DNA from: Eledone cirrhosa
Lineage: Eukaryota
Direction of reading: 5' to 3'
Assembly (NCBI GenBank): GCA_964016885.1
Contig: OZ024740.1
Span: 338,086,001 to 338,150,000 of the forward strand
DNA length: 64,000 bases
Part shown: one piece after another, positions 377-48,586 of the stretch
How the letters are laid out: each line of letters opens with the position of its first letter
How positions within the stretch are numbered: the stretch's first letter is position 1
Program-made: the position numbers and the translations under genes
Notes under the pieces: model-generated
Seen by the model: the letters and a program-made list of their open reading frames with translations, nothing else
Told to the model about the DNA's origin: nothing
Databases searched by the model: none

Positions 377-550
377 TGCCAGGGAACGTCTTCACGAACC
401 AAAGTATCGTCTTCCTGTTTTCCTTCGGTTGCAAAGTTTTTCGAAATATTTACTTCTGCGTTCACAGATTGATTTTTTTAGTTTCAGAAGATCTCGTTAA
501 GGGTGAAAGCAGCTATTCTTTGCTTAAACTTTAATCTGTTATTTTAATAT
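377..550 (+). repeat. Dispersed retroelement 3' end ending in (TA)n, carrying an HHR-like fold; nested in the Helitron
   Basis: Near-identical copy at 44861-45032; both run into (TA)n. Confidence 0.8.
464..539 (+). ncRNA. Type I hammerhead-like fold, variant core CAGAAGA
   Basis: Stem I ACAGATT..AGTTT/AAACT..AATCTGT; core CAGAAGA (485-491); stem II ctc-gttaa-ggg; GAAA (505-508); stem III AGCA/TGCT; putative CUU site. Confidence 0.5.
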
Positions 551-794
551 ATATATATATATATATGATTATATATTCGTGTACAGATATTATTGCATAC
601 ACAAAAACAAAATATAAACAAACGTATTTATTTCACGAAAGAACAGACGGCTTATCGTCATCGTTACTGCCGATATGCCACCCAAAAAGTCCCACTACTT
701 TTAGCACAAAGCCAGCAATTACATAGTGCCACCAGAACGTGCTGCCACCAGAAGAGCACTTGAAATAGACAACCAACGAACCATTCGCCGAACC

Positions 795-920
795 GTGTCA
801 GCTTTGCAATGTCTATCAACAAATCCCAGGGTCAGACCATAGCTGTTGCTGGTTTCTTTTGGAAGAGTCATGTTTTTCACATGGGCAACTATATGTTGGC
901 TGCTCAAGAGTGGGAAGCAA
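795..920 (+). pseudogene. Helitron RepHel helicase motif V/VI fragment (frameshifted)
   Basis: Translates FAMSINKSQGQT and, after a frameshift, VFSHGQLYVGCSRVGS, the PIF1-family C-terminal signature. Confidence 0.85.
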
Positions 921-1311
921 GACAAATTTCTTTGCATATGCCCGACACGGAAGAACAAGGAACATTATGTACAAGGAGGTGCTACAATCATTGTTTAGGT
1001 AGACGAGACAGAAGGGAATATACACGATTGACTGAAGAAGAACGAGACTGTGTTAGTAGTACGACCAACGGCTGCTATCACACCAACAGCTGCAAAAGCA
1101 AGAACAAAAAAGAGAGGGAACGCAATTACATGCTTTTGAAAAATGTTAATGGAAAATTATTTGCCTAAGCACAAAATGTAGACACCATCCTCAGGCAGAG
1201 GTATTCCGTATTTCTCTGTACTATTTCAGAAAGGAGGGATAAACATGCCAATCTATGTTTAGAAGCCCGAGCAACGCCAGGCCATTCTGCTAGTATATAA
1301 TATATTAGAAA

Positions 1312-1362
<51 letters not shown>

Positions 1363-1399
1363 CTGAGAAATTGTGAGAAATGCAAATTGATAGATAGCT

Positions 1400-1850
1400 G
1401 GCTGCAGGCATGGCAATGTATTTAAAAGTTCAATGCAAATGAAACATAACCACATTCAATCCCCCACCCCTAAAAAGACAACTTGGAACTGTCAAAATCC
1501 ACCCACTTGTCTGTTTAATAGATTCTGTCTCTCAAAAAAGTTGTATACTGAAAATAACTATGGAGATTTAACTGCAAATACTTTCAAGAGTCGTTATTGT
1601 CAGCACTTTCACTGATAGAAAATGAGGAAGACCATAAATTCCATACGTCTGTCTTAATTTGTCTGGAAAATCAGATACCAGATAGTTACATGTCCACCAA
1701 TGACATGGAATATTGTCGATAGAGCCATTTCATACTTCAATCTATCACAGAACTGTAGAATTTGCTTAACAGAAAAGTTTCAGATCATGAAGTAATATCT
1801 TTTAACTTGAGATTAGAAGTATTATCTATCTAATTATCACCCCTAGAGGA
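1400..1850 (+). pseudogene. Degenerate Penelope-like GIY-YIG endonuclease fragment
   Basis: Motifs NCQNPPTCLFNRFCL, TANTFKSRY..H, FVWKIR, WNIVDRAISY and CRICLTEK, interrupted by stops. Same motif order as 13066-13440 and 46537-47091. Confidence 0.7.
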
Positions 1851-1854
1851 GGTT

Positions 1855-2197
1855 TCTCTTGGATAGTGTCCAACCATCGACTTTTAGTGCTCTGCACCTT
1901 TTTATGCAGCTGTCATCCTCATATGCATCACATGTCCATACCAACGCAACTTCCTCTCCTGCACACCGCATTTAATTCCTCTTATGCTCACTCTCTGTCT
2001 CAATTCGTTCATGCTTTGCCGTTCACGTATATAACTTACACATCCATCAGAGCATGCAAGCTTCATTTCTTTCTAATCCAAGCAAGTCTTCTGCACACAA
2101 CACCCAGGTCTCACTACCATGTAACTTTGTTGTTCGTATACACGCATCATATAGTCTGCCTTTCATTTTGAGGGAAAAGCCCTTTGCAGCTAGCAGT
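1855..2197 (-). pseudogene. RTE-clade LINE ORF2 3' fragment
   Basis: KGFSLKMKGRLYDACIRTTKLHGSETW; homologous to 34010-34650. Confidence 0.75.
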
Positions 2198-2474
2198 GGT
2201 AAATATAAATAAATATATATATAAATATATAAGCAATCTAAAATTCTGCAATATAATACGAACAGCATTAAAAGCACCTTTATATAACCAAAATATTATA
2301 TTATCACTCACGATAATTATGAAGCAATAATTTAGGTTGGGTGGGGTGTAATCTCTCTACCAGAACACAGAACGACTGCCATCCCAAATTATACACTAAT
2401 TAGACTAGTCAGACCCTTCACAACTGGTCGTCTATTAATATACAGAAGAAACTTGCATAATTGACATTCGTAAA

Positions 2475-2735
2475 CAGGGCCTGATTTAATGGGAGGCAAA
2501 GGGGGCAATTTCCTCGGGCCGTCTGCAGTGGCGGTGAGTTGGGGCACCAGTGACGGCCGTAGCAATTTATTTGTGCCCTCAACTGGCCTTTTTAGTATGG
2601 GGGGGAGGGTGTAGAATTTTTGAATTTAATACCTGTATGTATAACTTTTCAATTCCAATTAGTGGGGGAGGGGTGCTGTGTATTCTATTTTTTTCTAGTG
2701 TGTGACCCCCCTCCCCCCATCTAAATCCCACCCTG
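2475..2735. mobile_element. hAT-type MITE
   Basis: Imperfect TIRs CAGGGCCTGATTTA / TAAATCCCACCCTG, flanked by the perfect 8-bp TSD TTCGTAAA (2467-2474 and 2736-2743). Confidence 0.8.
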
Positions 2736-2743
2736 TTCGTAAA

Positions 2744-5192: not shown

Positions 5193-5227
5193 GTTCTGCT
5201 ACACCAAACTACATTATATTATTATGA

Positions 5228-5542
5228 TTTGAGTTCAAATGCCGCCGAGGTTAACTTTGCCTTTCATCCTTACAGGGTCGATAAAATAAAGTACCAGTAA
5301 TACACTGGATAATTGCTGGCTTTGTGCCAAAAGTAGAAACAATTATATTATATAGACGTGGATTGGCAGTATCGGTAGAGGGTCGGACGTCATGCTTTGA
5401 CGCATAGAATTACGGCCCTTGCCATTCTGAGTTCAAATCCCGCCGAGGTCAACTTTGCCTTTCATCCTTACGGGGTCGATAAAATAAAGTACCAGTAATG
5501 TACTGAGTAATTGCTGGCCTTGTGCCAAAAGTAGAAACAATT
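5228..5542 (+). mobile_element. Two tandem family A SINEs (5'-truncated 5228-5345; full 5355-5542)
   Basis: Same A/B boxes, core and tail as the other copies. Confidence 0.85.
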
Positions 5543-6066
5543 ATATATACTACACCACACCATAGTTGACATACTATACTGCATGAGGCCACGCTACACA
5601 GGATCATTCTGCACAACACTGCATTCCAATACAGCACACTACACTTCATTGAAAGAAACATATATCATTGTTGTCGCATGTCTATCAGCAACAACAGTCG
5701 TAGCAGTAGCAATTACAGCAATAGCATGGAAAATCAAATTACAATCGCCGCCCGTAATCGAGTATGACTTGGTTGTATGTAACATACTTTCACTTTGGAT
5801 TTCATGTGCCCATGCAGTCACGAGCAGACACCCTCTCGACACTTTCCTTTGATCCAACAGAACATCCAGGATGTGATAGCTGGAACGAGAGATGGTTGCA
5901 TCAGCTTTGAGCTGATTCTTTCGTTATCTACTCCGTAAGGACGAGAAACAAAGTGAACCTCGACGAGATTTGAATTCAGAAGAGATGGACCTGAAACAAA
6001 TAACTAACGCTCTAATAACTCGGCCAAATTGACTGTCTTAGCAATAACATGAAACATATCGATAAT

Positions 6067-11590: not shown

Positions 11591-12617
11591 TTTGATAGTT
11601 AAACTATATTTTTTATTTTCATTTGCTGCTGAATGTGCAAAATGTTTAATCATCATCATTCGACTTTTTGACATTAACATAATGTTTAAAATGGAATTCC
11701 TATATGCTTTATATATCTCAGATAATAGAGACGAAATAATATTTTCATAGATGACATCCCTCACACAAAGTTGTTAAGATTTCTGTCTTTAGTTTCAAGC
11801 GATTCGTATGAATTTGTGTGCCGATAGTTATTTAGAACAGACGGATCTGATGTCTTTGACAACATTTTACACCACATTAGAATGAGACATCGTGTTTAAT
11901 ACGTTTTTGTAAAGAAATCTTAAATAATTGTCAGTAAATAACGAAAGCAATAACTTTTTATATTAACAACAATGATAGCCATACAGAAAAAAATCGGGGA
12001 CTGCAAAAAGTCCAACGAAAGTATACAATACTAACGGACGCAGTATTCTATTAAAATACGTGAAAAATATAGAAATTAACAGCATACAATAGTAAAAGCA
12101 ATCTGTGTTTAATAATTAAAGTATTAATATAGTAACATTTCTGCAAATTTAAAATGGTATTGCTTCAAGTTATTAAGAATTAAAACAATTAAAAATGCAA
12201 ATGAAATATACATACACCCTTGTGTTTATGTATGCACCTCTTCCCTCCCTTTATTTACCTTCTTTCAATCTTTTCCTTTCATTTTCCATTATTTGTGCAG
12301 TTGCGCGTGCGCGTTAAAAGGCCTTTCGATTCGTTTCCAAGGACGCACACACAAACTTACCGCAAATTCAAATATATATATATGTATATATATATATGTG
12401 TTTGTGTATATGTGAATCTTTATATTTAATAATCTCCCATAAGGTTGAGATGCAATTTGGGCAATATTGGGCTGCGCTTTCTATCAACCAGCCCACTCGC
12501 CGTAAGCAACCAATCACACTCTTTCTGACTTGACCACTGCCACGTCACAGTTCTTAGCCATTTTGAATTCGTTTCTGACGGGGATCACTTAAGAAAATTC
12601 TTTGTCCAAATGAGTTT

Positions 12618-12697
12618 GTTTCCTGATGAGTTCGAAGCTCGAGATTTTATGCTTAATAGGATATTTCCGAAAGCGAACGAAACCCTAGGGTAGAAAT
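12618..12697 (+). ncRNA. Type I hammerhead ribozyme, canonical core
   Basis: GTTTC-CTGATGA(12623-29)-GTTCG..39 nt..CGAAC-GAAA(12679-82)-CCCTAGGG-TA-GAAAT. G10.1-C11.1 intact, GUA cleavage triplet, palindromic stem III ACCCTAGGGT. Confidence 0.8.
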
Positions 12698-12987
12698 GTA
12701 ATCCTGGTATGTGTATATGCATTTTTTCTTCTAACTTAATTTTATACCTAATTGTGTATGGTTGACGGTATATTAAATCGATTTCCACGTGCTATTGAAA
12801 TGTTGGGTAAATATTCTATAGCGGTTGGTCGCGAATAGATTGGTGTCATTTATTTATCTACTATTTCTTCATAGGTGCCTTTTAATCTTATAGCCTGGTT
12901 TAATTGATTTTTTGTGGTTAATTATGCTAATTAGGAGAGGAAATGGTGTATATATATTATCAAATGATTCTATGGACATACTTTATA

Positions 12988-13055
<68 letters not shown>

Positions 13056-13065
13056 CTATCTATAG

Positions 13066-13440
13066 TTATGCATCTACTCATGCACCGTCAACACAAACAA
13101 CTCTTGTAAAACATATATCGGCTTTACTTCGAACAGCTTCAAGACGAGATACAACTCGCACCTCCACACTTTCAAAAAACACAATCTAACCAACTCCACT
13201 TCTTTATCTAGCTACGTACACTCTCTGAAAACTAGGAATAGACCATTTACACTGCAATGGGAAGTAGTAGGTAGGGCCTCATCATATAAACCACCGAATA
13301 AATTGTGTAATCTCTGTCTTCTAGAGACCCATACTATAATCTTTTCGAAAGTAGACCTCCTTAATAGAAAGTCAGAGACATTTTCCTCGTGCCAACACCG
13401 ATACCGTCACTCGTTCCATAACTTTAAACCTAGCTGTTAG
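13066..13440 (+). pseudogene. Penelope-like element C-terminal GIY-YIG endonuclease (5'-truncated)
   Basis: Open frame IYSCTV..KTYIGFTSNSFKTRYNSH..STSLSSYV..WEVVGRASSY..CNLCLLE..LLNRKSE..CQHR*. Starts just after a (TA)n tract. Confidence 0.85.
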
Positions 13441-14698
13441 TATATAACAATGTCAGATTTGAATTCCCCACCACCATTAACACTTTACATCTAGGACTTA
13501 TCAGCACCCACAGCTACACACTCCTTGATCAGCCCTTTCCTCTACACAACTCCTATGTATCTCTAGCCTTATACTCTGCAATAACTGTTAGAATTAAATA
13601 TAAAGTTACCACCTTTTGGTATAACTACTGTAGCTTAATTATATTATATACAGTAATGCATATGTAATATGTAGAGACATTTAATGTAATATGTAATAAT
13701 AAACTATATATACATTTATATAATTAAATACTTAAATTAATAACATGTATATAAGGGATCTACCTTTAACAAAGTGTATATACATTTATAATTAAATATA
13801 TAAGAGATTAATTTTTAAACAATAATGTATATTATTACACAAATGATATATCTATTTGGACATATAAACAGCTATACAAATTTCCATAACATATATCTTG
13901 TCCAGTAATGGGACCTTTAATGTATTATAATAAAATACACTGCATTTAAAATCAAGTATAAATATATAGCATTTTGTAATAGAGATTCAATTGTATCACA
14001 TTATAATGTGTATTAGAGGAAAGATTTTAAATAACTGAATTTAATTAGCTAGTTACCTCCCCTTACGCATTAGCTCCCCTTATACATTTCCGGAAATTAA
14101 CCATTCGAAATTCTACCTGTTAAACAACTATAGTCCATGAATAAGAATACAATAAGGCTAATTTACAATCCATTGCTTTAACTAACTTAAAACATTCAAT
14201 ATAAACATTAACTAAAATATAAATCAACATATGTAATGGAAGGGACTGCAAAAACTTTGTTCTTCTCAACACACACAAATTCAAACACTATCAACATACT
14301 ACGTCCACCTTAGATTTTAATACATTACATATTTGCTTAAAATACAGAATTTATTTGTCTATATATGCACATTAACTTTGCTTATTTCCTTCTCATATAC
14401 ATGACTAACGCATGTACACCTTACACACAACTGCATATGTATTGATAATGTACTCTTTCTTTCTCAAAGCTCCTTGCTCAATGCCTATTTAATTATTAGA
14501 CTATTCTCTTGTATTATCTGTTGCATGTATTCCACCCTCTGTTTTTATTTTATTTTGAATTTTTGTACAATTCTCGTAAAATATATGTCGCATCCATTCC
14601 ACCCTGTAAATACGAAACTGTTGCTCACATCATCAATATATATGTATCTATATTATTGTTCAGTTGAATAGAAGGTTAATTACATGTACAAACATTGA

Positions 14699-14752
14699 TA
14701 ATGCTCCGATGACTCCAAATGAGAGTTTGGAAGAAACGATTGTCAGCTATTA
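14699..14752 (+). ncRNA. Minimal type I hammerhead, core CCGATGA (U4C)
   Basis: TAATGCT-CCGATGA-cTCCAAAtgagagTTTGGAa-GAAAC-gatt-GTC-AGCtATTA. Confidence 0.65.
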
Positions 14753-14808
14753 AATGATTTGAACACAACTTTGATAATTGTCTAATTTATTTATTATATA
14801 TATATATA

Positions 14809-15097: not shown

Positions 15098-16059
15098 CTA
15101 GCAGTAAAGCCCGGCGTTGCTCGGGGTCGCTCAGTAGCTGTGTTAAAGTTACAATGTTAAGTTTCTTTCTTGGCTTAAAAACTGTAGTGTCTACTGTGCA
15201 GACTTGCATGTGGTGTTTTTGATTAATATTCCCTCAACCAACAATATGCCTTATGAAGTTAAGAAAACATAACGATAACCCGAATGTTATAACAAAAGAG
15301 GATGCTGGGGATAGAAACTGCACTGGTTATTTATTAACAAAGATCGAAAATGTAAACACTGCAACGCAGAGAAAAACATTAGCGTAACCAAATTATCAGT
15401 TATGTCTGTCTGCACGCCTATATCACCTCTCTGCACGACTGTCTGTCTGCACGCCTATATCACCTCTCTGCACGACTGTCTGTCTGCACGCCTATATCAC
15501 CTCTCTGCACGACTGTCTGTCTGCACGCCTATATCACCTCTCTGCACGACTATCTGTCTGCACGCGTATATCACCTCTCTGCACGACTGTCTGTCTGCAC
15601 GACTGTCTGTCTGCACGCCTAACGACGAAATATTTGCTTGTTTTACGTAGTCTTTAAATAGACTTGTTTTCAAGTAAAAATATTGTTTTAAAATGCTTTT
15701 AAATGGAAATGAAGCAAAACGGAAGCTTAGTGTTCGAACTGATGAATTTTGCAGGTCAATATTTTGCTGGCTCGACAACTGTTCGAAACGCTGAGAAAGC
15801 CAGCGTAATTTTTTACGTAAGACGCTCAATGTAAACAGAACAAAGGGAAATAACTGATAACTTACGCTCAAAAATCGATACATTATATTCGATTTCGTCA
15901 CATAGGGTGGGTGAATTTGAAATTTTTTTTTCCGATGTCTTCGCTAGGGCTCAATGTACAAGTATAGCAATTTCGGTGCAATTCCGCGAGAGATTCTAAG
16001 AGGAGATGTGTGCCAAAAATCGATAGACAGACAGACAACCACAGTTTTATATATATAGA
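15098..16059 (-). mobile_element. Non-autonomous Helitron
   Basis: On the minus strand: A|TCTATATATATAAAACTGTGGTTGTCTG ... CCCGAGCAACGCCGGG hairpin ..CTAG|T. Inserted between A and T with no TSD. Confidence 0.88.
15403..15620 (+). repeat. ~37-bp minisatellite inside the Helitron
   Basis: TGTCTGTCTGCACGCCTATATCACCTCTCTGCACGAC, about 5-6 copies. Confidence 0.9.
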
Positions 16060-17385: not shown

Positions 17386-17604
17386 CTCATTACCTTTTGG
17401 TAGGGAGTGACAAGACTTTCGGACCATCATACATACTTAAGGCGTCGCCAATGCATATTTAGTTGTGGTATCATAATACACCTTGGAGTTCACTGGTAGT
17501 TGGTGTGTAGTATTCTTTATTAGCCGTGAGTACTCTGATAACACAAGTAAATATGAATTGACAACACCTTGTATATAACGGTGTGGCAGAGATAATTCCG
17601 GTCA

Positions 17605-17705
17605 CACACGTCTGATGAGTTATCGATTCCATAGTCGGGCGTCATCCCTACCGATTGTACCTTGAGCTGATCGATTGCGAAACGCGAAGTCTTTCGTCAT
17701 GTGTG
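17605..17705 (+). ncRNA. Type I hammerhead ribozyme, canonical core, extended stem II
   Basis: CACACGT-CTGATGA(17612-18)-GTtATCGAT..ATCGATtGC-GAAA(17679-82)CG..C-GTC(17696-98)-ATGTGTG. 7-bp stem I and GUC site. Confidence 0.85.
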
Positions 17706-17713
17706 ATACACAT

Positions 17714-17893
17714 AATTGTTTCTACTTTTGGCACAAGGCCAGCAATTACCCAGTACATTACTGGTACTTTATTTTATCGGCCCCGTAAGGATGAAAGGCA
17801 AAGTTGACCTCGGCGGGATTTGAACTCAGAATAGAAAGGGCCGTAATTCTATGCGTCAAAGCATGACGTCTGACCCTCTACCGATACTGCCAA
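17714..17893 (-). mobile_element. tRNA-derived SINE (family A)
   Basis: Near full-length consensus match. Further partial copies lie at 17950-18050 (+), 18075-18197 (+) and 18960-19069 (-). Confidence 0.85.
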
Positions 17894-18583: not shown

Positions 18584-19914
18584 CGAAAGTCCAAAACTTT
18601 TAAAAGTATATATAATCTATAGAAAATATTATATATAGCCTCTATATCTTACCCAGTTACAATTTATATGTCTTCGCTGTTTTTTGTGATGTTTTTAATG
18701 ATATTTTTAAAGGTATTTTTGATGTCTCTTAAACTTTTTTCTGATAGGCTTTATAGGTCTTTTAAATGCATACATACAAATACTTAATATCATCAAATTT
18801 ATACATAGGTATAAGTAATGTTATCAAAATATATACATAACATTTTTATCTTAGAACATATGTAATATATGATGTTCGAAAACCATATATGAAATAATTT
18901 TTCCATATACTACAATTAGAATATAATTTGAAAGTAAATTTGAGACTACGTAAACTAATAATTGTTTCTACTTTAGGCACAAGGCCAGCAATAATCCAGT
19001 GCATTACTGGTACTTTATTTTATCGACCCCGTAAGGATGAAAGGCAAAGTCAACCTCGGCGGGATTTGAAAACTAATAATAATTAGAGTTATCTTTTCCT
19101 TTGAAAAGAAAGATGTTTACATCTAATATCTACGTAACAATTAAACTTTACATAAATATTAAAATTTCGTAAAAGAATATACAAAATAATATACATCTTC
19201 TATACTAAAATAGAATTACTTCCACATTCTTAAGCCATATATTGAAAATGTAAACATACCATAACTCTTCTTATATAAAACCATCTATATCTAACCAAAA
19301 TTATTTATCTATTAAATAAATAATATGTATACTCACCAAAACTATTTATATATATACAAATAACCTCTTATAGTATAATAAAATATACTCATAACAGCAA
19401 TCTTCATAATATTAAAAGGCACCAGTAGAATAGAACCAATCGTATATATAAATACAAGATATCTTTCACATTTTAAATTAATATTCTGTCACTTTAACAC
19501 ATTTATTTATAATTCCAATAAATACTTCCAAAATATATAATTAAATAATAAATTAAATAAAAATAAAAATAATTATTTCATTCTCTCTACACCCTTACAA
19601 ATATGTTCCGGACAATTATATACGTACATTCCTATAAATATTCTGTTAGTAGCTTTAATATCATTTTTTCTTAAAATCTTTCCTTAGATTTTCTTCCACC
19701 CTAATAATCCTATTTCCTTTTTTTATATATAAAAAAAAAATAATCCTAATAATTATTTAAATTTACCTAGTGTCTAAACATAACGATGTTTTTCAGTTTT
19801 AACGTTATCCTCATTAGCATATTCATCTTGTGATTGAAATTTTTCTTCACTATTCAAATAGAACTCACAAGATTAAGTTCTTGTCTGAATATGTCACTAT
19901 CTGTAAACCATCTT

Positions 19915-23748: not shown

Positions 23749-23770
23749 CTATCTGTAAACCATCTTTTGT

Positions 23771-23824
23771 ATTTTATCTGATGAGCGCGTACCAAAATGT
23801 TGGTACCTTTGAAATATATATAAT
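23771..23824 (+). ncRNA. Type I hammerhead with its stem I 3' strand disrupted by a SINE
   Basis: ATTTTAT-CTGATGA(23778-84)-..GTACCAAaatgTTGGTAC..-GAAA-TATATA-TA. The flanks match the copy at 48523-48586. Confidence 0.6.
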
Positions 23825-24001
23825 TGTTTCTACTTTTGGCACAAGGCCAGCAATTAACCAGTACATTACTGGTACTTTATTTTATCGACCCCGTAAAGAT
23901 GAAAGGCAAAGTTAACCTCGGCGGGATTTGAACCCAGACCATAAAGGGCCGTAACTCTTTGCTGCAAAGCATGGCGTCCGATCCTCTACCGCTACTGCCA
24001 A
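23822..24001 (-). mobile_element. tRNA-derived SINE (family A)
   Basis: Consensus match. Confidence 0.85.
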
Positions 24002-24030
24002 TATGGTTTTATAAAGATAGCTTCCATTTA

Positions 24031-24109: not shown

Positions 24110-24754
24110 CGGTTAAAGATACAAAGTAAAACTAGGATACTCCTGCGCTAAGAACATGAAGGCCCACATCACCAGCAGCCCTAGGAGCAACACCCCACCA
24201 GGGCGCTCTTGCCGTAAGCCCGAAGGTTGCCCCCTTCAATAGCAATGCAACACACCAGCTGTGGTCACTTCCAACTGACCAAACCAACCACAGGAGGTCA
24301 AATCCTATGTGGGCATGGCGGTCCCTCAAAGGCTCAAGTATAGACTTCTCCATTCAATGGAAAGCCATCACTTAGTCCAAGCCATACACAAGGGGAAATC
24401 CGTCGTGTGGACTGTGTATTGACGAACGAATAAATATTCTAAAGAGATTATGCAATAGTGATTGCCTAAACACGAGAAATGAATTTTTCACACGTTGTCC
24501 ACACGTCTCGAAACACCTATTGCATAACTACAAAGCTCCGATTGAATGGATTATTGTAAGAACATCAATATTTTTTCTTATCAACTAAAAACTTTTCGGA
24601 CTTTCGCAGTTATCTCCCTTACACCTCTCGCACGCATTTTAGTATTGCCTTCGTGAAGTGACGGGTTTCTGCGCATGCGCGTTCGTACGAGCTGAGGATC
24701 CGCTAAGGTGAAACAATTGTTCTCGGTATGGTGAACTAACTGTTGTGTAACCAC

Positions 24755-24757
<3 letters not shown>
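24110..24757 (+). mobile_element. 5'-truncated, internally deleted Penelope-like element (EN plus HHR), ending in (TA)n
   Basis: KLGYSCAKNMK, CRKPEGCP, KSYVGM, FSIQWKAI, KPY..CGLCIDER..LNTRNE..CPH; HHR at 24681-24736. Confidence 0.8.
24681..24736 (+). ncRNA. Minimal type I hammerhead
   Basis: GTTCgTACGAG-CTGAGGA(24692-98)-tCCgctaaGGt-GAAAC-aatt-GTT-CTCgGTAtggtGAAC. Palindromic stem III AACAATTGTT. Confidence 0.75.
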
Positions 24758-27238: not shown

Positions 27239-28100
27239 ATATTGTATGCGCCTTGCACTGGAGAAACACCAGGACTCTGGTTTTACTGTAGCACCGGCTC
27301 AGAGCAGGAGAGTTAGGGCGAAAAAGGTATCGGATGCTGAATTTGCCGACGACATAGTTTTGGTGACAAATACAGTGAAGGAGGCAGAGGATTTGATGCG
27401 GGAGGTTGAGACTGTGTCGATGAGTGTGGGGCTGAGAATGAATGAGACTAAAACAAAATATCTGGTAGAGAATGTTGAGAAGCCAGAGGGGATCACTAAT
27501 GTAGGCGGGAAGCCGCTGGAATTGGTTGAGGACTTCCTGTATTTGGGAGCAAAGGTTGGGAATACGGAAGATGATGTGGTTGAGAGGAAGAGCAAGGCCT
27601 GGGCGGCGTGCCACAGCTTGAGATCGGTGTGGAAGTCGGACCTTCGTAGAGACCTGAAAATCCGCCTCTTCATTGCTGTAGTGGAGTCTGTGCTGCTGTA
27701 TGGGTTTGAGACTTGGACACTGACCAAGAAACTCACCCAGATGGTGGATGGGTGCTACACGAGAATGCTGAGGATGGCTCTGAACATTAATCAGTATACA
27801 CTGAGGATAAAAAACTCAGAGCTGTATGGGAGCATCCCAAAAGTCAGCTCAAAAGTGACACAGAGGAGACTGAGGTTAGTTGGACATGCTCACCGACATC
27901 CAGAGTTGACATTGCACTCAGTACTCCTTTGGGAGCCCCTACATGGACACACTAGAAGAGGAAGACCAAGGTTAACGTATGTTGATGCCCTAAGGACAGA
28001 CACTGGTCTGTTGGAGATGCAGGACATGGCAGCGATAATGAGGGACAGAGACCGCTGGAGAGAACTCGTCCATGGATCTCGGGAATTTTACCCGCCTTAG
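27239..28100 (+). mobile_element. RTE-clade LINE, 3' part in sense orientation
   Basis: YCMR..EFADDI, GLRMNETKT, DFLYLG, VESVLLYGFETW, RGRPRLTY. Directly continues the RT broken at 24807; ends in (TA)n. Confidence 0.92.
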
Positions 28101-30696
28101 ATATATATATATATATATATATATAGATATATATATATATATAATATTAACTCATTTATTCACATATCTGATATACTTGTATGCAACAACATAGAGATTT
28201 CAATACAAGAAGTAGAGAACAATTAATTCTCCACAACAAAATATGTAACACAATATCCTATATCAGTTTGTGATTTATGATTATATCGAATTTCTTTCAT
28301 GAAGATCCTATTGTTCTTAATGAAACTAGTTTTACTGGTGAAGGTCAACTGGAAGAAATAGTTGACAATCAAGCTTTTTATTGGATAGGCAAAGAAATAA
28401 AACGAAACTCAGTCATTTGGTGTCAAATTTGTAATAAGATCTACCATTGCAAAATATCTATGTCCCCTTACCCAACCTCTAAAGACCCAAACAAGGAGTA
28501 CCATGAAATAAAGTGCCCCCAAAACGAGGAGAAACGAGAAGACATCTCTCAACCACCGCAAAGTGGGTGGGAGATCTCCTTGTTGGATAGGGAGAGTTGA
28601 CAGGTCTCTGTTTGATAAGCTATTATGCTCCAACAATGTCATATAATTGACATGACAAAGACAGCTTTTTATAACATCTCAAAGCCCCTCACATCAACAA
28701 GACGCAATGGCTTAAAGACCAAGGTGGGATCCCATTTTCGATACTTGGTCGGGTGAAATTGATAACCAAAGAAGTAATGTATTTTGCTTTCTTTAAAATA
28801 CTCGGATAGCCTCATAACAAAAGTTGGGTTCGACGAGAACAACATTAAAATTATATCTTTCTTTGGTAGAATGCACACTGCACATAATTATTGAATATCA
28901 GAGAAAAATATTAAAAACTCGTGAGCTAAAAGGATCAGTACAAAAGTCTTTTAAGAACCGGGAAAGAAGTGTACAGAAAGCAACCAAGACTCAATCTGCA
29001 GCATATAGATAGGATATTAGAGTATTGTATAAAGGTTTTAACTAATAACAAACAAATGTGAAATTACCTTCAGAGAATCTCTTAGATTGTCTTAAGAAAT
29101 ATTATCAATGCTGTTATAATTGTTTTCATTGCTTGGTTGATTCGAAGTAACACCTGTTACTGCTACCATTGATGTCGTTTTTATTTTCAATGTTCAAATC
29201 CCGCTTTAGGTTAGCTTTGCCTTTTATCCTTACAGGGTCGGTAAAATAAAGTACTAGTAACGCTCTGATGTTGATTTCTTGCTGGCCTTATTCCAAATGT
29301 AGAAACAATTATAGAAACATTGGCGTGAACATATGTATTTTGCTTCGTTCCTCACTATCGACTAATTTCGAATGGATTTTTATAATTATTTTTCGGCTTT
29401 TGGACATAACTTTTATTTGCATATATCAGATAAAGCATTTTTTTTTATAGTGTAAGAAGTTCTTTTATATAATTGACTTTTTGTTTTTAAAAAAAACGAA
29501 CATTAATGACCTTTTGAACGTTGTTTTGTTTCGATTAAATTTTTAATGCTGTCGTCATGACAGCAAAATAACACCCACTGAAAGGAAATAAAGACCGGCA
29601 TTTCATGAAACACAACACAAAAAGACAAACGTGCTTTACACTAAAACATAAATTCTATGGGTACGAATATTTATTGCGTACTTCCCAAAACATACTTGAC
29701 GATAGCAACATTAATGATATCACTAACATTTATATACAGATACAAATGTAGCCAGGTGAAACATTTTATAATGGAACTAGTTTTGCTTGTATAGCTGCAA
29801 ACAGTCAACATTTGGATGTGGGTAACTTACTTAAACCAAACACTGGCAACGATGCTTTGGGGAAAATTCAGAAGTGGACAAGGAGAAAGCTTCCAATATA
29901 TGGGATAGTCTTTTTATTATTACACATTATTCATTATATGAATTGTAGTCAACTAGTAAATAGTGTGTGTATTAAAAGAAAAGAGAGAACAAATATTAAA
30001 AGGAAAAAAACTAATCTATCTTGGTTTTACAAAAGAGACGGAGAGGTTTCTCTGCTCACCAAAAACGAATTAAAAAAAGCTTTAGCAAATATTTAGACTG
30101 ACAACTTGTTTATAGAAAAAAAAGGACAAATTATTTATAGAAAAAGAAACTAGAAAATAAACAAAAATAAAGTGGAATAGCATAGTACAAAGGTTTGTCA
30201 GGGGCATTACAAATAATATTGACCCCTGGTTCATTGTGGTCAGAAGAAGTTATCATGATTCCTCAGCACACCAAAGTCATTCCAAAGTTGTGCCCTGTTA
30301 TGGTTGCAGAATCAAATGTTATAAGACTGATGGAGCAACAAAAAGGTATAGTTACACTTATGACAACCAAAACTGATGGCTTTCTTCCCTAAAGAAGTGA
30401 AAAAACAAAAGAAGAGGGAGCGACTGGACACTGCTCCATGAAGATAACCAGTTACAGTCCAGATGTGACAGGTAAATCTGCCTTATTCCTGTTACCCAAA
30501 GTAAATGATGTGGAGGTTCTCTCTCCTGATCTGGAGATAATAGAGACCATAACATGCTTGGTCCCAGAGATAGACACTGTAGCCTCTTCTAACATGTCAA
30601 GCTTGCATTATATGCAAATAAAGATCTCCAAAAATGCATTATTCACAAAGTCTATATATAAGCTATTAGCATATTTACTTCAGTATGGAGTGAGTA

Positions 30697-30745
30697 AATG
30701 TCACTGATGATGGATAAAGATCCTGAAATATTAGTAATTGGTGTT
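30697..30745 (+). ncRNA. Degenerate type I hammerhead
   Basis: AATGTCA-CTGATGA(30704-10)-tGGATaaagATCCt-GAAA-tattagtaat-TGGTGTT. Stem III and the cleavage triplet are imperfect. Confidence 0.4.
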
Positions 30746-32359
30746 CATGCATAGTTACTGGGTAGCTTTGACATGATCAAAGTGAGACTTATGTATGTCT
30801 GTTATACATAAACATATTGTAGATGATTCCATATATGCCACTATTTTTCCAATTATGTATACTTCTATGTTATATTCATTTAAAACTGGCCTGAAGATTT
30901 GCAGTAGCTTTGCTGGATGTGCAATATTGGTGTATGCACAAGTGAGCTGAGAGAAATAGATTTGAATATAGTGTGCAAGAGTGACACATAAGGATAGTGA
31001 TAGTTGTATAAAAAAGTGCCAAATGTTTGAAGTGGAAGACCAAGGAAAGCACGAGACAAAGTTATGAAGAATGACATCAAGAAACTGAACCCTACAAAGA
31101 AGATGACACATGACAGAGCTGACTCATGATATGCCATAATACAAAAATCATGCCCACTAGTATAAGCATTGCAACACTAAAAGTAAGAGTGGTCAGAGAC
31201 TGGAGGCTAGAGTGGTGTTGATTGAATGGAGACAATATAGGGTTTGAATGAACGCGTTTGTCTGGCCAAGCATGTCGCAACCTCTTTAGTACTGGAGTCA
31301 CAATAAAATGCACTCAGTACACCCTGTAAAGTGTTAGTGCTGGTGCCATGATAGAATATACCTAGTCAACCCTGTAAAGTTGTAGTACTGGTGCCTCAAA
31401 AATGGAAGCACATCTGACCATAGAAAAAATGGCAAATATGTAGTGTATAAGCAAGATGAGGTTACTCTGATCTGTCGGATCTTGGACCTCATCAACCCAT
31501 CCAACACATGTTAGTGTGGAAAGTTTATGTAAAATGAATTTGGGCAGATTTTTTTGCATTTAACATCTGTATGTATAACTTATGAATTCCAATTACATGT
31601 GCTAAGCCGACTTTGATATGTAAATTTTAATATTTTGTGTATGAGGGGCTTCCCAAACCTAAAGTGCTCTGGACCCCCAAGGTCTAAATTTGGCCTTGTT
31701 TAACAGTACCACTCCATCCACTTGCAAGGATAGGGACCAAATGGGATCTGAAAATAACTGACACACTATTACAACATTAAAAGAAAAGAAGCGAAAAATG
31801 AATCAAAACAAAAAACTAACTCTGTCAGAAAATACTCAACTGAAACTCCAGGAACTGTTCAAATACACAGTCATCCGAACCAGTGACTGGCATCTGATTA
31901 CTCTTCTATACAAGTTGGAAGAAAACAATCCACATGATATGTGACTGAACCAAGAGTTGAGGATACTGTATCAAGAGCCCTTGATAGACAAACTTTTAGT
32001 TTTAACAATAGAAGTATGCAAAAAACTTACTTTTGTCCAGAGGATGTGTGTTCCTTCATTGATGAATCCACCAAAACACTGTTATGGGTGATTTTGAAGA
32101 TCCTCGAGATGAATACATTGTATAGTGGGCAAGCAGAAATGTGGAGTGCTGTGATGCAACCTAACTAATGGGTATTCACCCACCGAGGGTGGGTAAACCT
32201 AAATATGTTTTCATGTTATGTAATAATATATTTTGTTGAAATAAGTGTAAAAATATCATAAGACATACAATATTTATAACAATTATTATTGTTATGTCTT
32301 TATCCAATTTCAATGCCTTTATTATATAAGGTCTTTGCACCTACTTACATTTTTAAGTA

Positions 32360-41709: not shown

Positions 41710-41859
41710 TGTTATACTTTGGGAGGGTCATGTTGCCAATAACAAACACACGCACCAGTTGCTTTCACTTCAATTTATTATAATAAATTTATAAATTTAG
41801 GAATTTATAAATTTCCGGTTGGTTGGTTGGTTCCACAACCAGATGGTTGTTTATATATT

Positions 41860-41902
41860 GTCAAAGTTCTTTCGTCACACATTCTGTGACCGCTTCAGTA
41901 AC
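41860..41902 (-). ncRNA. Minimal hammerhead-like fold in the PLE 3' end (A9C variant or decayed)
   Basis: Minus strand GTTA-CTGAAGC-g-GTCACAgaatgTGTGAC-GAAAG-aa-CTT-TGAC, ~200 nt downstream of the EN stop. Confidence 0.5.
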
Positions 41903-42109
41903 TGGGGATTCTTTTCTTTGTTTTTGTGCCTCTCCTTTGTTCTGTCCTACGCCATCTTGTTTCTGTGTGTGTGTTGTGTGCTCAGTCAGCGCATGCGCAT
42001 GCGCCACATCCGGGTGTCTGTGTGTCTTTATATTCGTTTATTTATTTGTTTATTTACATGTTACTGGTTGGTTGTTTGTTCTATGTGCCTGTGTGTTTTC
42101 ATTTTGTCC

Positions 42110-44075
42110 TTAATTGTAAGTTGTGATGTTGCTGTTCCACTCATGTTTTCTATTTAATTTTGGTTGTAATTCTTTTATGTTTATTGCCTCTGTGATTTGT
42201 CTAAACATTGCGTCATTTTTGTGTGTAGATTCTATTTTTATTTCTATGTTCTCTAATTTACCCTTATGTTCTATTTTAGCATGTTGGTAGAGTACAGATG
42301 ATTCTTTACTATCTTGAAGGTCTCGCCAGTGTTCATTTATCCGTTCCCCTACACTATGAGCTGTCTCACCTATGTACACTATATTTTTATCTCTACATTG
42401 TCCTTCAGTACATCTTATGCTATATACTACATTTCTTGTTTTACAGTTAATATGGGGGCTTAATTTACAGGTTATACATTTCTTATATATACAGGGGGGT
42501 CTTGAAAAGGGTATGTCTTGCTAATAAGTGTTTTTATGGAGGTACCTGGTCTTTCTACTATCTTAATATTGAGTTTATGTTTATCTAGGGCCCTTCTAAA
42601 TTTGTAAGCTAATTCACCTCTAGGGGTTGTATCGATGAACATTACACTCTGGTATTTATTGCTATCATACCATGAGTTTATTCTATTAGCCTTATTCCTA
42701 GTTCTTTCTATTCTATTCCAAAATTTGCTCCTATACAAGGGGCAGGTCCCATTTGTGTCATTATTTACCATTTTTTCCCATTTGGTTCTGGCTCCTCTAT
42801 ACACACTGATTTTATCACTCTGATTGTAACCATAGAACTGCATACAGTGGATGAATTGTTGTATGTGTCTCTCTAGTTCTTCGGGGTTGAACATGCGGGA
42901 CACGTTTCTCATCACCCGTACCAAATCCGAAATCAGTATGTTGATTTTGGTATGGTGTGAAACAGCTGAGTTTCGGTGGATAAGATATTTGGAAGTCATG
43001 GGTTTGGCATAATGGGAATGGAGGATTTGTTTTTTGTTATTAATGGTATCTAACCAGAGCTCTGTGTCTAGTACAGGTAATCGATGGTTGGGGTGTTTGC
43101 TTGGGTAGTCTATAGTAACTCTAATACTCTGGTGGATGGAGTTAGCTATTTGCTGGATGCTTTCCATTGTGTTTTTCTCTAATTCCTAACTGTTCTCTAG
43201 TGGGGGTGTTTTAACTACGATGTTTATATCATCAACGTAGCGGGAGTACATTATCATCGTTAAGGGGTCTTCTAATTGTTCTTTAAGTTTAAGTCTACTG
43301 TCCCACCATACCATGAATAAGTTAGCTATGTTGCCTGCAATGCTAACACCAATGGCGGCTCCCTCCTCTTGGGCATATGTTTTTCCATTAAATTTGAACA
43401 TATGTTCCTTAAGGGTTAATTTTATGCTGCCCCCCATCGCATGTGCAATCATTTTCTTTAGTTCATCGTGATTTTCGGGGGCCCGTATGGCTCTGGTCCA
43501 CCTGTTCCATCTATCTGTGTGGGTTTTTTGGCCATTGAGGTAATGGTAGGTGGTCTGCCTCTTGCTGGTCTTGTAGGGCACAGGTTGCTAAGGTCATATG
43601 TGTCTAGGTAATTATTACTTTAGGTAAGTTTAAGTAGGAGTCCCAGCTCACTGGTATCAATCCCACGGAACTCAACATTGCTCTCACTGATCATTTTTCC
43701 ACAGCAAAATCCACGTCAATAGATGGATACAGGGACACAACATCCAAACTACCTATTATGCAGTTTGTTAGGCCCCCTAGATCGGTTACTCTCGCCGATT
43801 CTGCTGAGGAGGTCCTCCGTACTGTCACATACATCTGGGGACATTTCAATGATGGGGCGTGTGATGAGGGAGAGGAAGTAGGACAGTCTGTAGTTACTAG
43901 CAATGTTAGCTCCACAGACTGGGCGTGTTGGTGGTCCCGTGACAGGGTCACTGCCCGTTTTGAAGCCCATACAACGCTGGCACGTCATTGTTCCAGGCCT
44001 GGAAGTTGTTGGCAGTCCTTTTGTTGGGCTGCATTATATTTGTCCACATCACCATATGGGCATTGAGGGCTTTTT
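42110..44075 (-). pseudogene. Penelope-like element RT plus C-terminal GIY-YIG endonuclease, frameshifted, 5'-truncated at (TA)n
   Basis: PPTRPVCGA, GSLDVVSLYPSI, FKFNGKTYAQEEGAAIG, SRYVDD, LPVLD, HYAKPM; CKTRNVVYSIRC..C..VYIGETAHS..RINEH..RQITEA..LNRKHEWN. This EN type differs from the other PLE fragments. Confidence 0.9.
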
Positions 44076-44094
44076 CTCTATCCTCATGCTCATT

Positions 44095-44135
<41 letters not shown>

Positions 44136-44206
44136 GAAGTATTTCCGTAGGAAAGGTAAAGGAAAAGAGAGTGCTCTATGTAGGCTACAGAGCTTTGTAG
44201 TTATGT

Positions 44207-44270: not shown

Positions 44271-44293
44271 CAGAGTCCGTCCTGATCTTTTCC

Positions 44294-44391
<98 letters not shown>

Positions 44392-44850: not shown

Positions 44851-44947
44851 TGTATATATTTGCCAGGGAACGTCTTCACAAACCAAAGTATCGTCTTCCT
44901 GTTTTCCTTCGGTTACAATGTTTTTCGAAATATTTACTTCTGCGTTC

Positions 44948-45023
44948 ACAGATTGATTTTTTTAGTTTCAGAAGATCCCGTTAAGGGTGAAAGCAGCGAT
45001 TCTTTGCTTAAACTTTAATCTGT
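44948..45023 (+). ncRNA. Second copy of the CAGAAGA hammerhead-like fold
   Basis: As 464-539. Stem II is CCC/GGG here versus CTC/GGG there, a pairing-neutral change. Confidence 0.5.
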
Positions 45024-45025
45024 TA

Positions 45026-45114
<89 letters not shown>

Positions 45115-45163
45115 AATAATAATACAAGGACGATTTATTGAGCCTTCATTATGTTTATTGATT

Positions 45164-45248
45164 GGTGACCTGTGTTTCGTTATTGATCAGCTCAAGGTTC
45201 GATCTGTATCGATCTGGCCCGACTCTGGAATCAAAAGCTTGTCAGACC
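45164..45248 (-). ncRNA. Type I hammerhead, extended stem II, core CTGACAA (probable CpG decay of CTGACGA)
   Basis: Minus strand GGT-CTGACAA-GcttTTGAT..ATCAAtaaC-GAAAC-acag-GTC-ACC. The stem II insert is homologous to that of 17605-17705. Confidence 0.65.
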
Positions 45249-45874
45249 TCTGCTGTTGTAATGACAGAATGAACATTTAAAGCATAGAAATGTCTGTAAC
45301 GTTTCATTTTGCATTCATATGGTGGTCAGTTTATGTTGTTTTGATTGGTGGTTTAGCTATGAGGAATGTTTTGGCATGTGTGATAGGTGGGGGGGGGGTG
45401 AGTATAGTGATGAGGTGGTTGTGGGGAGCGATGTTTGATTATGAGTTGTGGGGTGTGGTGTTTTGGCTTATCATAGACATTCTGGCATGAACATGGTGAG
45501 GCAGAGGTGCTGTGTGTGGTATGGATGCGGTAGGGGTGTATGTGATGGGACATGAAAGAGTGTGATGCTGTACTAGGGGTAGGGGGTTTCTGCTGGTCAT
45601 CAGTTTGTTATGGAAGAGTGAGTGGAAAGGAAGAAGGGGAAACATAAGGGAGGTAGGTTATACTAGGTTGGGGTGGAGCTTGTTTGTAAGCTGGTTAAAC
45701 ATCGTTAAAGGGGATTTGCGCTATAAAGAATTAATGAAATAATTAATTATGGTTTGAGATTAGTGTTTGAAAAGACTATAAAAAAATTATTTTTCATTGG
45801 GTGAACCTACAGTAACTTCATGTTACACTTCCTGGATATATATATATACATATATATATGTCTAAAGTCTGTCT

Positions 45875-46015: not shown

Positions 46016-46239
46016 TCGGGGTCCTGAACATTTTCCTATTACCCACTCTACTACCCTAATATTGAGCACTCTGGAGCGTTATGGTCCACCTGGTTCCTTA
46101 CCACACTTCCTTCGTTATATGTATATATATATAAATATATATATATAACGGAGGAATTGTGGTAAGGAACCAGGTGGACCATAACGCACCAAAGTACTCA
46201 ATACTTAGGGTAGTAGAGTGGGTAATAGGAACGAGTAGG

Positions 46240-46335
46240 ACCCCGACGGCTGAGCTCAAGCCGTTTCGACGGCTAATTCTGGACTAAATGAAAATTTTCA
46301 TCCTGGTATTTGAATAGCCGAGCTTCTCAAGGGGT
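46240..46335 (-). ncRNA. Hammerhead ribozyme, U3-A8 core variant (inverted pseudo-LTR copy)
   Basis: Reverse complement of 48336-48431. Confidence 0.75.
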
Positions 46336-46536
46336 AATTCCATATATGGTAAAAGTGATTGTCACAAGGATTGGTCAAAAGTTTGTTGTTGATACATAAT
46401 AATTCTATCATGGCAATTTGTAGAGGGAAGGGGTAGCTGAACCTGCCAGTAGGAGAAAAAGGGAGAGGGGGTGGAGGAGACCCAGTCATGCGTTGATAGT
46501 GCCGACTACAGCTGGGCATGAGGTCAAAGAAGATAC

Positions 46537-47091
46537 TTTGCACAAAACATCGTCTCCTCTAACAACAAAAAACTCAATCCCTATGGAAGAAATAACCTAA
46601 ATAGCAGTGGAGAGCCGACCAGGAGGTGCAACTGTCCTGATGGATCCATTTGCTCCCTCGACAACAGATGCAGAGATCGTAATGTGATCTACCAGTGCAA
46701 CGTGAGGACGGACACCTCCAACAAAGCTTATATAGGATTAACCGCATGTGACTTCAAGATCCGGCTATACCAACACAGACATACCTTCCGAAACCCGGCC
46801 CGGCGTCACGCCACTACACTTTCGGGCCACATATGAGACCTCAAGGATAACAAAATTACCTATCATCTCACTTGGAGATTACTGTCCAGAGCCAACTCTT
46901 ACACGGGTGGACGCCGTCCGTGCAATTTATGCTCGGAGGAAACTTTACAAATGTTGTTTTCGACGGACCAACTCCTAAACAAGAAAGATGAACTGGTTAC
47001 TGCATGTAAACACAGATTGTGTATGACTTACCTCGCCCTCAAACCCCATAATGACCCGGGGGGGGGGGGGGGGGGTAGACTAGGGCTATAA
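46537..47091 (+). pseudogene. PLE Cys-rich linker plus GIY-YIG endonuclease
   Basis: RCNCPDGSICSLDNRC-RDRNVIYQC..KAYIGLTACDFKIRLYQH..TTLSGHI*DLK..W..ANSY..CNLCSEE..LLNKKDE..CKHR. One TGA at 46834-46836. Confidence 0.88.
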
Positions 47092-47141
47092 CACCCCACT
47101 TGCCGATTTTGTAATGGGTAACCCCTGCTTGCAAAGGGAGA

Positions 47142-47497
47142 CGTAAGATCTTCTTTTATATCTTTTTATCGCTTCCTCTATATTTCCTTCTTCCCCCCAA
47201 TCCTCTTTCTTTGTCGTCGTCCTTTTCATTTTCTCGCACACCCGAGGCAGCCCCTCGGTCCTTTGTAGCCTCAGTACCCCCACCCCCTTCCCCTATTCTA
47301 TGATAGATTTGGCCGACTCCGTAAGATCTTCTTTTATATCTTTTTATCGCTTCCTCTATATTTTCTTCTTCCCCCAGTCCTCTTTCTTTGTCGTCATCCT
47401 TTTCATTTTCTCACCCACCCGAGGCAGCCCCTCGGTCCCTTGTAGCCTCAGTACCCCCACCCCTTCCCCTATTCTATGATAGATTTGGCCGACTCCG
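47142..47497 (+). repeat. Tandem duplication of ~178 bp in the PLE 3' UTR
   Basis: CGTAAGATCTTCTTTTATATC...GATTTGGCCGACTC twice, with a few substitutions. Confidence 0.9.
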
Positions 47498-48335
47498 CTT
47501 TTTATAGCAGATGTGTTAGACCCCGGATACCTGCCTTCTTATCCGATCGCTGCCCCTTTTCCGTGCTTTCTCTATTTCTTAGTGGTATCTTTGCTCTAAT
47601 TTCTCGTATATCAGTATTTATTTTTTTTGCGGGGGGGGGGGGGGGGGGGGGTTCTGAATTAATTTTCCGTATCAAATTTTACATATACTTCGTACGAGCA
47701 TTTATGTAGTTTGCACTAGAATTTTTGTATCGTAGCGGCACCCTTAGAGATAGTATTAGTATTCTTTTTCGGGATTCTGAATTATTATTTCGTATTAGTT
47801 TATTTTTTTGCACTGGGTGGTTGCTGGCCTTGTGCCTGGGGTAGAAACCTTTATTTATTATTTCGTGGTAGTTTCTTTAGTATTTTGGCCCCTCACTTGT
47901 TGACCCGTCACCGTAAGAGATACTCGGTTTATTACTTATACCTCTTAAAGGGGTCTCATTATAATTTCGTCCCACCTAGTAAACCTTTCTTTAGCTTAGT
48001 AGTACCAGTGAGAGACTTGATAGCTGTTTATTGTTTATTTTTTTACATTTAACTGCTTTTTAACACTCTCGGTATTTTTCTATATATTTACCCCATATTG
48101 TTTTACTTATTGTTTCGACTTCCTCCCCCTCCCTAGTATCTTCTTTGACCTCATGCCCAGCTGTAGTCGGCACTATCAACGCATGACTGGGTCTCCTCCA
48201 CCCCTCTCCCTTTTTCTCCTACTGGCAGGTTCAGCTACCCCTTCCCTCTACAAATTGCCATGATAGAATTATTATGTCTCAACAACAAACTTTTGACCAA
48301 TCCTTGTGACAATCACTTTTACCATATATGGAATT

Positions 48336-48431
48336 ACCCCTTGAGAAGCTCGGCTATTCAAATACCAGGATGAAAATGTTCATTTAGTCCAGAATTAGCC
48401 GTCGAAACGGCTTGAGCTCAGCCGTCGGGGT
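48336..48431 (+). ncRNA. Hammerhead ribozyme, U3-A8 core variant
   Basis: ACCCC-TTGAGAA(48341-47)-GctCGGCTATTC..GAAtTAGCCGtC-GAAA(48404-07)CGGCT-tgagctc-AGCC-GTC(48424-26)-GGGGT. Confidence 0.78.
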
Positions 48432-48441
48432 CCTACTCGTT

Positions 48442-48484
<43 letters not shown>

Positions 48485-48522
48485 GTAAAGTTATATTTAA
48501 AATTGTTGGGTTACAATATTCA

Positions 48523-48586
48523 ATTTTGTCTGATGAAGGCATAGCATATTGTTAATATGATATCCCCGAAATATATATAATGAAAT
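48523..48586 (+). ncRNA. Minimal type I hammerhead with a TATATA stem III
   Basis: ATTTTGT-CTGATGA(48530-36)-aGGcATAgCATATTgttAATATGaTATcCCc-GAAA-TATATA-TA-ATGAAAT, lying between TA tracts. Confidence 0.65.

Follow-up and report, generated by a model that had tools for sequence, protein, structure and literature searches.

In the present work, we analysed a stretch of 64,000 nucleotides of the Eledone cirrhosa genome (GenBank assembly GCA_964016885.1, contig OZ024740.1, positions 338,086,001 to 338,150,000 of the forward strand; hereafter, the window), in which an initial annotation had placed hammerhead ribozyme (HHR) folds at 13 positions. It is very probable that these motifs are type I HHRs lying in the ends of Penelope-like elements (PLEs) and of units lacking an open reading frame (ORF), the latter likely mobilised by PLEs, and that they were left there by what is likely target-primed reverse transcription into (TA)n microsatellites. 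The window has a GC content of 37% and TA microsatellites are plentiful in it; the genome as a whole is 3.0 Gb.

All 13 positions harbor sequence of type I HHR families, but they do not represent 13 sound folds; the initial annotation is therefore correct as to the families, and only six copies have an intact core, while three carry a variant shared by their whole family and four are damaged. The search relied on a descriptor of our own, made up of CUGANGA (or the covariant of its 3-8 pair), stem II (up to 110 nt), GAAA, stem III, UH, and stem I, a score of at least 12 being the cut for an intact-core motif. Six such motifs were retrieved from the window (C3 at 12623, 17612, 24692, 46330 on the minus strand, 48341, and 48530), versus a mean of 0.045 and a maximum of one in 200 block-wise dinucleotide shuffles, so that shuffled sequence does not have a similar motif density; this comparison is post hoc, since the descriptor was relaxed twice after the sites had been seen. 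The weak matches at 15739, 2093 (minus), 62521 (minus), 55433 (minus), and 33832 were discarded for a low score or a broken core. Five further matches, with a score of 11.4 and thus under the cut, were discarded from a satellite with a period near 833 nt (stretch L100), which is a source of weak false HHR matches.

The variant cores are U4A at 485 and 44969, found likewise in 19/19 other top copies of family A, and U4C at 14706, found in 19/19 other top copies of family C. U4C is a natural HHR variant of reduced activity (PMC3088659). As for the damaged copies, the 3' strand of stem I is replaced by an inserted repeat at 23778, U16.1 is changed to A in the palindromic stem III at 30704, A9 to C at 41898 (minus), and G8 to A at 45245 (minus); in each of the last two cases, 16 of 19 relatives are intact. 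The majority core of the family is intact in seven families out of nine and has a U4 variant in two. The expectation of at least seven unrelated families was right in that many are unrelated, the count being nine (named A to I) rather than seven, and the only similar pairs of sites are 464/44948, 17605/45164, 23771/48523, and 46240/48336. The family searches returned 1861, 1415, 1323, 1673, 401, 437, 2197, 463, and 39 first-look candidates, which are not copy numbers. The copies in the window, with their predicted cleavage sites, are the following:

376..546, plus strand: family A end with a U4A-variant HHR (C3 485, cleavage after 525), inside a non-autonomous Helitron-like element (about 22-1294).
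12400..12989, plus strand: family B, ORF-less retrozyme-like unit of 683 nt (head-to-tail), truncated at the 5' end in this copy and flanked by two TA tracts; intact HHR (C3 12623, cleavage after 12692) with a palindromic stem III.
13066..14794, plus strand: family C, 5'-truncated Hydra-type PLE with the end of GIY-YIG at 13066-13440, a long 3' region, and a (TA)n end; U4C-variant HHR (C3 14706, site 14744).
17560..17710, plus strand: family D end with an intact HHR (C3 17612, site 17698) and a long stem II, followed by a repeat resembling a short interspersed element (SINE), without a TA tract; its parent element was not found.
23762..23829, plus strand: family E remnant with an intact core (C3 23778), a SINE-like insertion having removed the 3' strand of stem I.
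24110..24757, plus strand: family F, 5'-truncated Hydra-type PLE with a broken GIY-YIG remnant (about 24155-24510) and a (TA)n end; intact, minimal HHR (C3 24692, site 24721).
30620..30800, plus strand: family G, old copy (74-89% to its relatives) of a wrap-around unit of about 300 nt, with an HHR mutated at U16.1 (C3 30704), without a TA tract.
41710..44097, minus strand: family H, broken PLE flanked on either side by TA tracts, in which reverse transcriptase (RT), thumb, and GIY-YIG remain, the linker (Cx4CxxC) being of the Neptune/Nematis type; minimal HHR at 41860-41902, A9 mutated in this copy.
44860..45030, plus strand: family A solo end with a U4A-variant HHR (C3 44969, site 45009) and a (TA)39 end.
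45109..45260, minus strand: family D end with a damaged HHR (C3 45245, G8 mutated), facing the TA tract of the preceding solo end from the other side.
46017..46116, plus strand: family I short fragment that begins at the predicted cleavage site and extends as far as the outer (+97) end, forming a palindrome (46030-46234) with the inverted copy.
46148..46523, minus strand: family I end, inverted 5' copy with an 80-nt tail; intact U3-A8 HHR (C3 46330, site 46245).
46523..48443, plus strand: family I, 5'-truncated Hydra-type PLE with a CxCx5C linker and GIY-YIG at 46522-47061, then the 3' region; intact U3-A8 HHR (C3 48341, site 48426), the element ending 17 nt later at (TA)16.
48485..48630, plus strand: family E solo end after a short inverted tail piece; intact HHR (C3 48530, site 48579) with a palindromic AU stem III.

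The presence of these motifs was then evaluated in two blind samples of 10-kb stretches taken at round coordinates (59 stretches, 589,600 nt, followed by 60 stretches, 599,800 nt; 1.19 Mb in all). The first contains 61 intact motifs, versus 1.5 in shuffles (n = 12), and the second 60, versus 0.4 (n = 10); overall, 121 motifs were observed against about two expected, i.e., an excess of about 60-fold. They belong to 32 families (Chao1 about 50), and 62 of the 119 stretches are without any motif. The large and diverse genome-wide population of ribozyme-bearing elements foreseen by the initial annotation is supported, and the load of the window (six intact motifs in 64 kb, about one per 10 kb) is ordinary for this genome. 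Weighting by chromosome class, the extrapolation to the genome gives 304,000 intact motifs (bootstrap 95% interval 229,000-389,000), a value that includes duplicated copies, misses motifs of the family H type, and leaves out small scaffolds.

The blind-sample motifs also carry the mark of a conserved fold. The 3-8 pair covaries (C-G in 104 motifs, U-A in 16, A-U in one; n = 121), N7 is represented by all four bases, and stem III is self-complementary in 98 of the 121 motifs. Moreover, in family E (23 rows), six of the eight stem II pairs change on both sides, with 26 two-sided cells versus 6.6 in shuffles, the structure having been read from the tested sequences themselves; the number of pairs showing a change does not, by itself, exceed that of shuffles (106/500).

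Four families (C, F, H, and I) lie in GIY-YIG PLEs; by their protein motifs, three of these are of the Hydra type, and H has a linker of the Neptune/Nematis type. A PLE protein is encoded on the same strand within 1.5 kb upstream at 14 of 30 loci for family I, 18/20 for F, 12/20 for H, and 5/20 for C, own copy included. The initial annotation had four HHRs directly downstream of GIY-YIG ORFs: all four are linked to them, with a gap of 0.2 kb (24681 and 41860) or 1.3 kb (14699 and 48336). Full-length copies of family I occur as tandem units of 3531 bp that are 99.97% identical to one another, a single HHR and an open frame of 784 codons being present in every unit; the array is bordered by TA on either side and carries an inverted copy on its 5' side. 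Four intact units of this kind form a tandem array at 437196001-437216000 of the same contig, a very recent insertion. The 784-codon frame has the YxDD and YIG motifs and no Pfam match; its protein shows DKT, the CxCx5C linker, and CxxC and CxH around the endonuclease (EN), without GxKF/Y, which is the signature of the Hydra clade, together with RWR where this clade has RWK. The EN remnants of families C and F possess Hydra-clade EN motifs (41% and 29% identity, respectively). The frames at 42110-43587, remnants of family H, match RVT_1 and GIY-YIG, and the Cx4CxxC linker preceding the EN in the 42110-42520 frame fits the CX2-5CxxC of Neptune/Nematis. These clade labels rest on motifs; the homolog search retrieved marine-type proteins with about 40% identity, the only named match being bivalve, and did not place the clade. 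Overall, the PLE anatomy is directly visible, with tandem units, 5' truncation, an inverted 5' copy, an optional tail, and an HHR in the end repeat, and agrees with the published one (PMC8557442, PMC11167929, PMC3846280). Inside the 3' region of the family I copy there is also a 177-bp tandem duplication (47142-47497).

Downstream, most of these HHRs lie close to TA tracts, as had been claimed. A tract of (TA)5 or longer lies within 300 nt downstream of 11 of the 13 window sites, compared to 17% of window positions; in the blind samples, the same holds for 99 of the 118 motifs that have room downstream, while upstream such a tract is present for 57/116, random points in the same stretches giving 39%. 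Family copies share one or two fixed 3' end points, where they join TA; this bears out the idea of TA tracts as landing sites: TA is found at the modal end in 27/28 copies of family I, 18/19 of F, 13/19 of C, 17/19 of H, 19/19 of E, 10/19 of A, and 27/29 of B. All eight start sites inspected are followed by TA in the element as well, giving an overlap of 2-5 nt with the target, and we infer that the target end would prime on this overlap. The tracts adjoining HHR ends are longer than the others (median 24 versus 14 nt; 53 versus 1417 tracts, p about 1e-6), a difference that fits tract expansion and the choice of long tracts alike.

ORF-less members, also anticipated by the initial annotation, are represented by family B, a 683-nt head-to-tail unit (periods 680 and 683) with one type I HHR per unit, whose longest ATG ORF is 56 aa and which has no PLE protein match. 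Twelve of its 30 loci are longer than one unit. In this family, the 5' ends are scattered; the 3' ends lie at about +300 (29 segments) and +418 (five segments) from the cleavage site, and the circular fold is predicted to be more stable than shuffles (z = -4.7). On these features, it appears to be a retrozyme-like unit bearing a PLE signature, that is, a fixed start, a tail, and a TA target. In two copies (L015 and L095), the start coincides with the predicted cleavage site or is no more than 7 nt away from it, which with only two cases does not exceed chance. Family G, which wraps at about 300 nt in three of 12 loci, is probably a unit of the non-LTR retrozyme type. The sample contains more HHR units that look ORF-less (L290, L291, L173, L080, and L067), repeating at 325, 312, 593, and about 425 nt.

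Part of family A seems to have followed a different route. The Helitron-like element at 22-1294 has a Pif1 helicase remnant (about 764-1060) over two frames, a 3' hairpin, and CTAG, and a Helitron-like 5' flank pattern is found in eight of 20 family A copies; together with the copy at 464 lying inside the element, this indicates that part of the family spread as cargo.

The 5' ends are less simple to read. No 5'-end peak was found at the cleavage site in the ten families tested; the genome thus contains no trace of templates produced by cleavage. Rather, 46 of 80 family I segments begin within loop II, 35-45 nt upstream of the cleavage site; most of them are head-to-head pairs, whose joints vary and in some cases contain extra T runs. 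The blind sample agrees, the whole ribozyme being present in only five of 51 family I segments, 30 of which start at -54 to -28, and contigs from raw sequencing runs (one sample) have the same head-to-head joints. The 5' clusters seemingly present in families E and C and in three more reflect, at least in part, the divergence of subfamilies from the reference, so only the family I cluster was kept; the family A counts, inflated by an unrelated repeat contained in the reference, were left out. Its upper edge falls on what we take to be an initiator-like sequence. The pile-up likely marks where the transcript starts, the cDNA running off its template there once both strands of the target have been primed, as is done in vitro by the Anolis protein. 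Alternatively, RT could stall at the loop II hairpin, or self-priming could occur on an antisense template (PMC3846280).

Taken together, these observations can be accommodated in the following mechanism. A protein of the element would cut a TA tract, and, downstream of the ribozyme, the target end would pair with the UA of either of two start sites; the cDNA would be made through the uncut ribozyme and would usually stop early, so that short solo ends and head-to-head pairs would far outnumber full elements. The activity of the ribozyme would most likely be confined to transcripts that read through tandem units, where it would work as a dimer or aided by the protein of the element, and its cleavage would release a unit-length RNA able to circularise and to give multi-unit inserts. 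Family B would be mobilised in trans by the PLE machinery. As for the solo copies dispersed in the genome, they are for the most part probably passengers with weak or no activity.

Several data weigh against this interpretation. The Rfam scan of the window, a check named in the initial annotation (4227 families, E of 10 or less), gave 125 matches and no hammerhead; the miRNA matches among them correspond to microsatellites and to the 46030-46234 palindrome. The predicted folds of the 13 window sites are in no case better than those of shuffles (z from -1.2 to +1.0), and only the family I sites 46330 and 48341 are predicted to take the three-way junction as the minimum-energy monomer structure. 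The gene link is lacking in part of the families: a PLE protein match within 1.5 kb upstream was found at 0/30 family B, 0/20 D, and 0/12 G loci, it is weak for A (2/20 loci) and E (1/20, a neighbouring element; 3/26 blind-sample matches within 2.5 kb), and only 18 of the 121 blind-sample motifs have a PLE protein within 2.5 kb; no PLE partner of family B was identified. Sites 17605 (family D) and 30697 (family G) have no TA tract within 300 nt downstream. Only three of the 80 family I segments have a 5' end within 5 nt of the cleavage site, one being the window fragment at 46017. Lastly, the U4A and U4C families are young, each with more than 1000 search candidates; their amplification suggests that full activity is dispensable.

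A more ambitious version, which we advance only tentatively, holds that this genome bears the largest HHR load reported (about 300,000 intact motifs, 50 or more families) because PLE proteins prime both TA strands and copy the 5' end of their own RNA. The family I transcript would start inside the ribozyme, so that only tandem read-through would assemble a complete, monomer-competent ribozyme releasing unit-length RNA; ORF-less circles such as family B would use the same machinery, and would be a direct genomic record of PLE-driven retrozyme insertion. The record itself is provisional, since counting methods differ and a figure reportedly given for Schistosoma would match the density found here. 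Among the published counts consulted, the largest is 126,247, for axolotl (PMC7229834; bioRxiv 10.64898/2026.07.22.740005), with more than 6000 for coral and about 5000 for mussel. Among the literature matches listed for hammerhead ribozyme and octopus there are no counts, and none of the top 15 cephalopod matches listed contains the word retrozyme; the available part of the 2026 Octopus repeat annotation mentions PLEs and does not contain the word ribozyme.

An unlikely, though not negligible, alternative is that in this genome transposition no longer depends on the ribozymes, which would be vestigial and kept only as neighbours of RT start sites. The lack of a 5'-end peak at the cleavage site and the family-wide U4A and U4C changes would agree with it, as would the finding that HHR mutants left insertion in vitro unaffected (PMC11167929). 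However, 32 unrelated families keep the core, stem III is mostly palindromic, and covariation is seen both in stem II and at 3-8; this requires selection on the fold, at least until recently.

Even less probable, in our opinion, is that the dispersed copies are active at the host level, each one cleaving the sense transcripts crossing it and shaping the transcriptome, as in the initial proposal that they would cleave any such transcript. In family I, the stem III is stable and the monomer fold comes at no energy cost according to the folding model, and at about 100 motifs per Mb palindromic stems III could find partners in trans. Against this, seven of the 13 window copies have a core deviation or a missing stem, most stems III are short palindromes needing a partner, and the core-open fold is predicted to cost 1.4-5.2 kcal/mol for the seven motifs outside family I that were computed. 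Furthermore, published PLE HHRs cleave poorly or only with protein: single minimal HHRs gave no cleavage (PMC4209133), eight of nine Xenopus dimers were uncleaved (bioRxiv 10.64898/2026.07.22.740005), and the Anolis PLE HHR requires its protein (PMC11167929). As for chance matches in AT-rich, microsatellite-rich DNA or assembly artefacts, the existence of weak matches (the five in one satellite and four rejected in the window) and the lack of Rfam support leave this reading a vanishingly small probability, since it is already refuted by the excess over shuffles and the multi-copy family structure, with covariation and the family I joints of the raw-run contigs also against it.

The remaining repeats of the window include a near-complete long interspersed element (LINE) of the L1/Tx1 type (19900-23745; endonuclease, RT, and zf-RVT in three frames), whose 3' end adjoins the family E remnant, and, between TA tracts at 24810-28100, LINE pieces whose RT and endonuclease-like frames lie in both orientations. 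The SINE-like repeat is abundant (17706-17893, 23814-24002, 5220-5555, and others); two copies are inserted just 3' of the HHRs at 17605 and 23771, and stretch L189 has the same junction with family D. A 37-bp minisatellite (15403-15601) and a 55-bp AT-rich repeat (50012-50295) are also present.

That PLE ends carry HHRs, that PLEs target TA, and that retrozymes derive from PLEs has already been published, and what is new here is mainly the scale. Hydra-clade PLEs are known from molluscs and other aquatic invertebrates and have been tied to canonical HHRs and (TA)n targets (PMC8557442); the elements described here share with them the C-terminal GIY-YIG, DKT, CxCx5C, CxxC, and CxH, the canonical HHRs, the insertion into (TA)n, the partial tandems, the inverted 5' copy, and the tail. 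They differ in the family I unit of 3.5 kb (generally less than 3 kb there), RWR instead of RWK, the 80-nt tail of family I (30-40 nt there), its U3-A8 core with a stable stem III, and copy numbers far above those mentioned there. With the minimal PLE hammerheads (PMC4209133), the motifs have in common the type I architecture, the short stem I, the unpaired base before stem II, the palindromic stem III, and U3-A8 variants, besides the occurrence of many unrelated families per genome, mostly as single dispersed motifs, and inverted pairs; the counts given there are about 2,000 and 1,300 for Schistosoma, 4,000 for coelacanth, and 9,000 for Xenopus, versus about 300,000 here by a looser descriptor.

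Animal non-LTR retrozymes (PMC7229834; bioRxiv 10.64898/2026.07.22.740005) resemble family B in being ORF-less and head-to-tail, with one type I HHR each, a low GC content, a circular fold predicted to be well paired, and a proposed PLE origin. The copies of family B differ in lying dispersed in the genome, and their fixed 3' ends, tail, and TA targets directly show the insertion signature of PLEs. In the Poseidon element PAc of Anolis (PMC11167929), two internal RT start sites downstream of the HHR likewise explain the tail, both target strands are primed, and cleavage is not needed for insertion; unlike here, where 8/8 inspected start sites share 2-5 nt of TA with the target, the PAc start sites are reported as non-homologous to it, and the clustering of family I 5' ends inside the ribozyme is a further difference.

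The genome of E. cirrhosa bears on the in vivo role of PLE hammerheads, as it offers tandem elements that are 99.97% identical and carry a predicted monomer ribozyme. It also offers dozens of natural core and stem variants, the family-wide U4A and U4C included, and an ORF-less unit having a PLE insertion signature; with all this material, experiments could directly address cleavage, the transcript start, and how retrozymes are mobilised. Should only a few percent of the approximately 300,000 motifs cleave, an orientation bias would be expected inside long introns.

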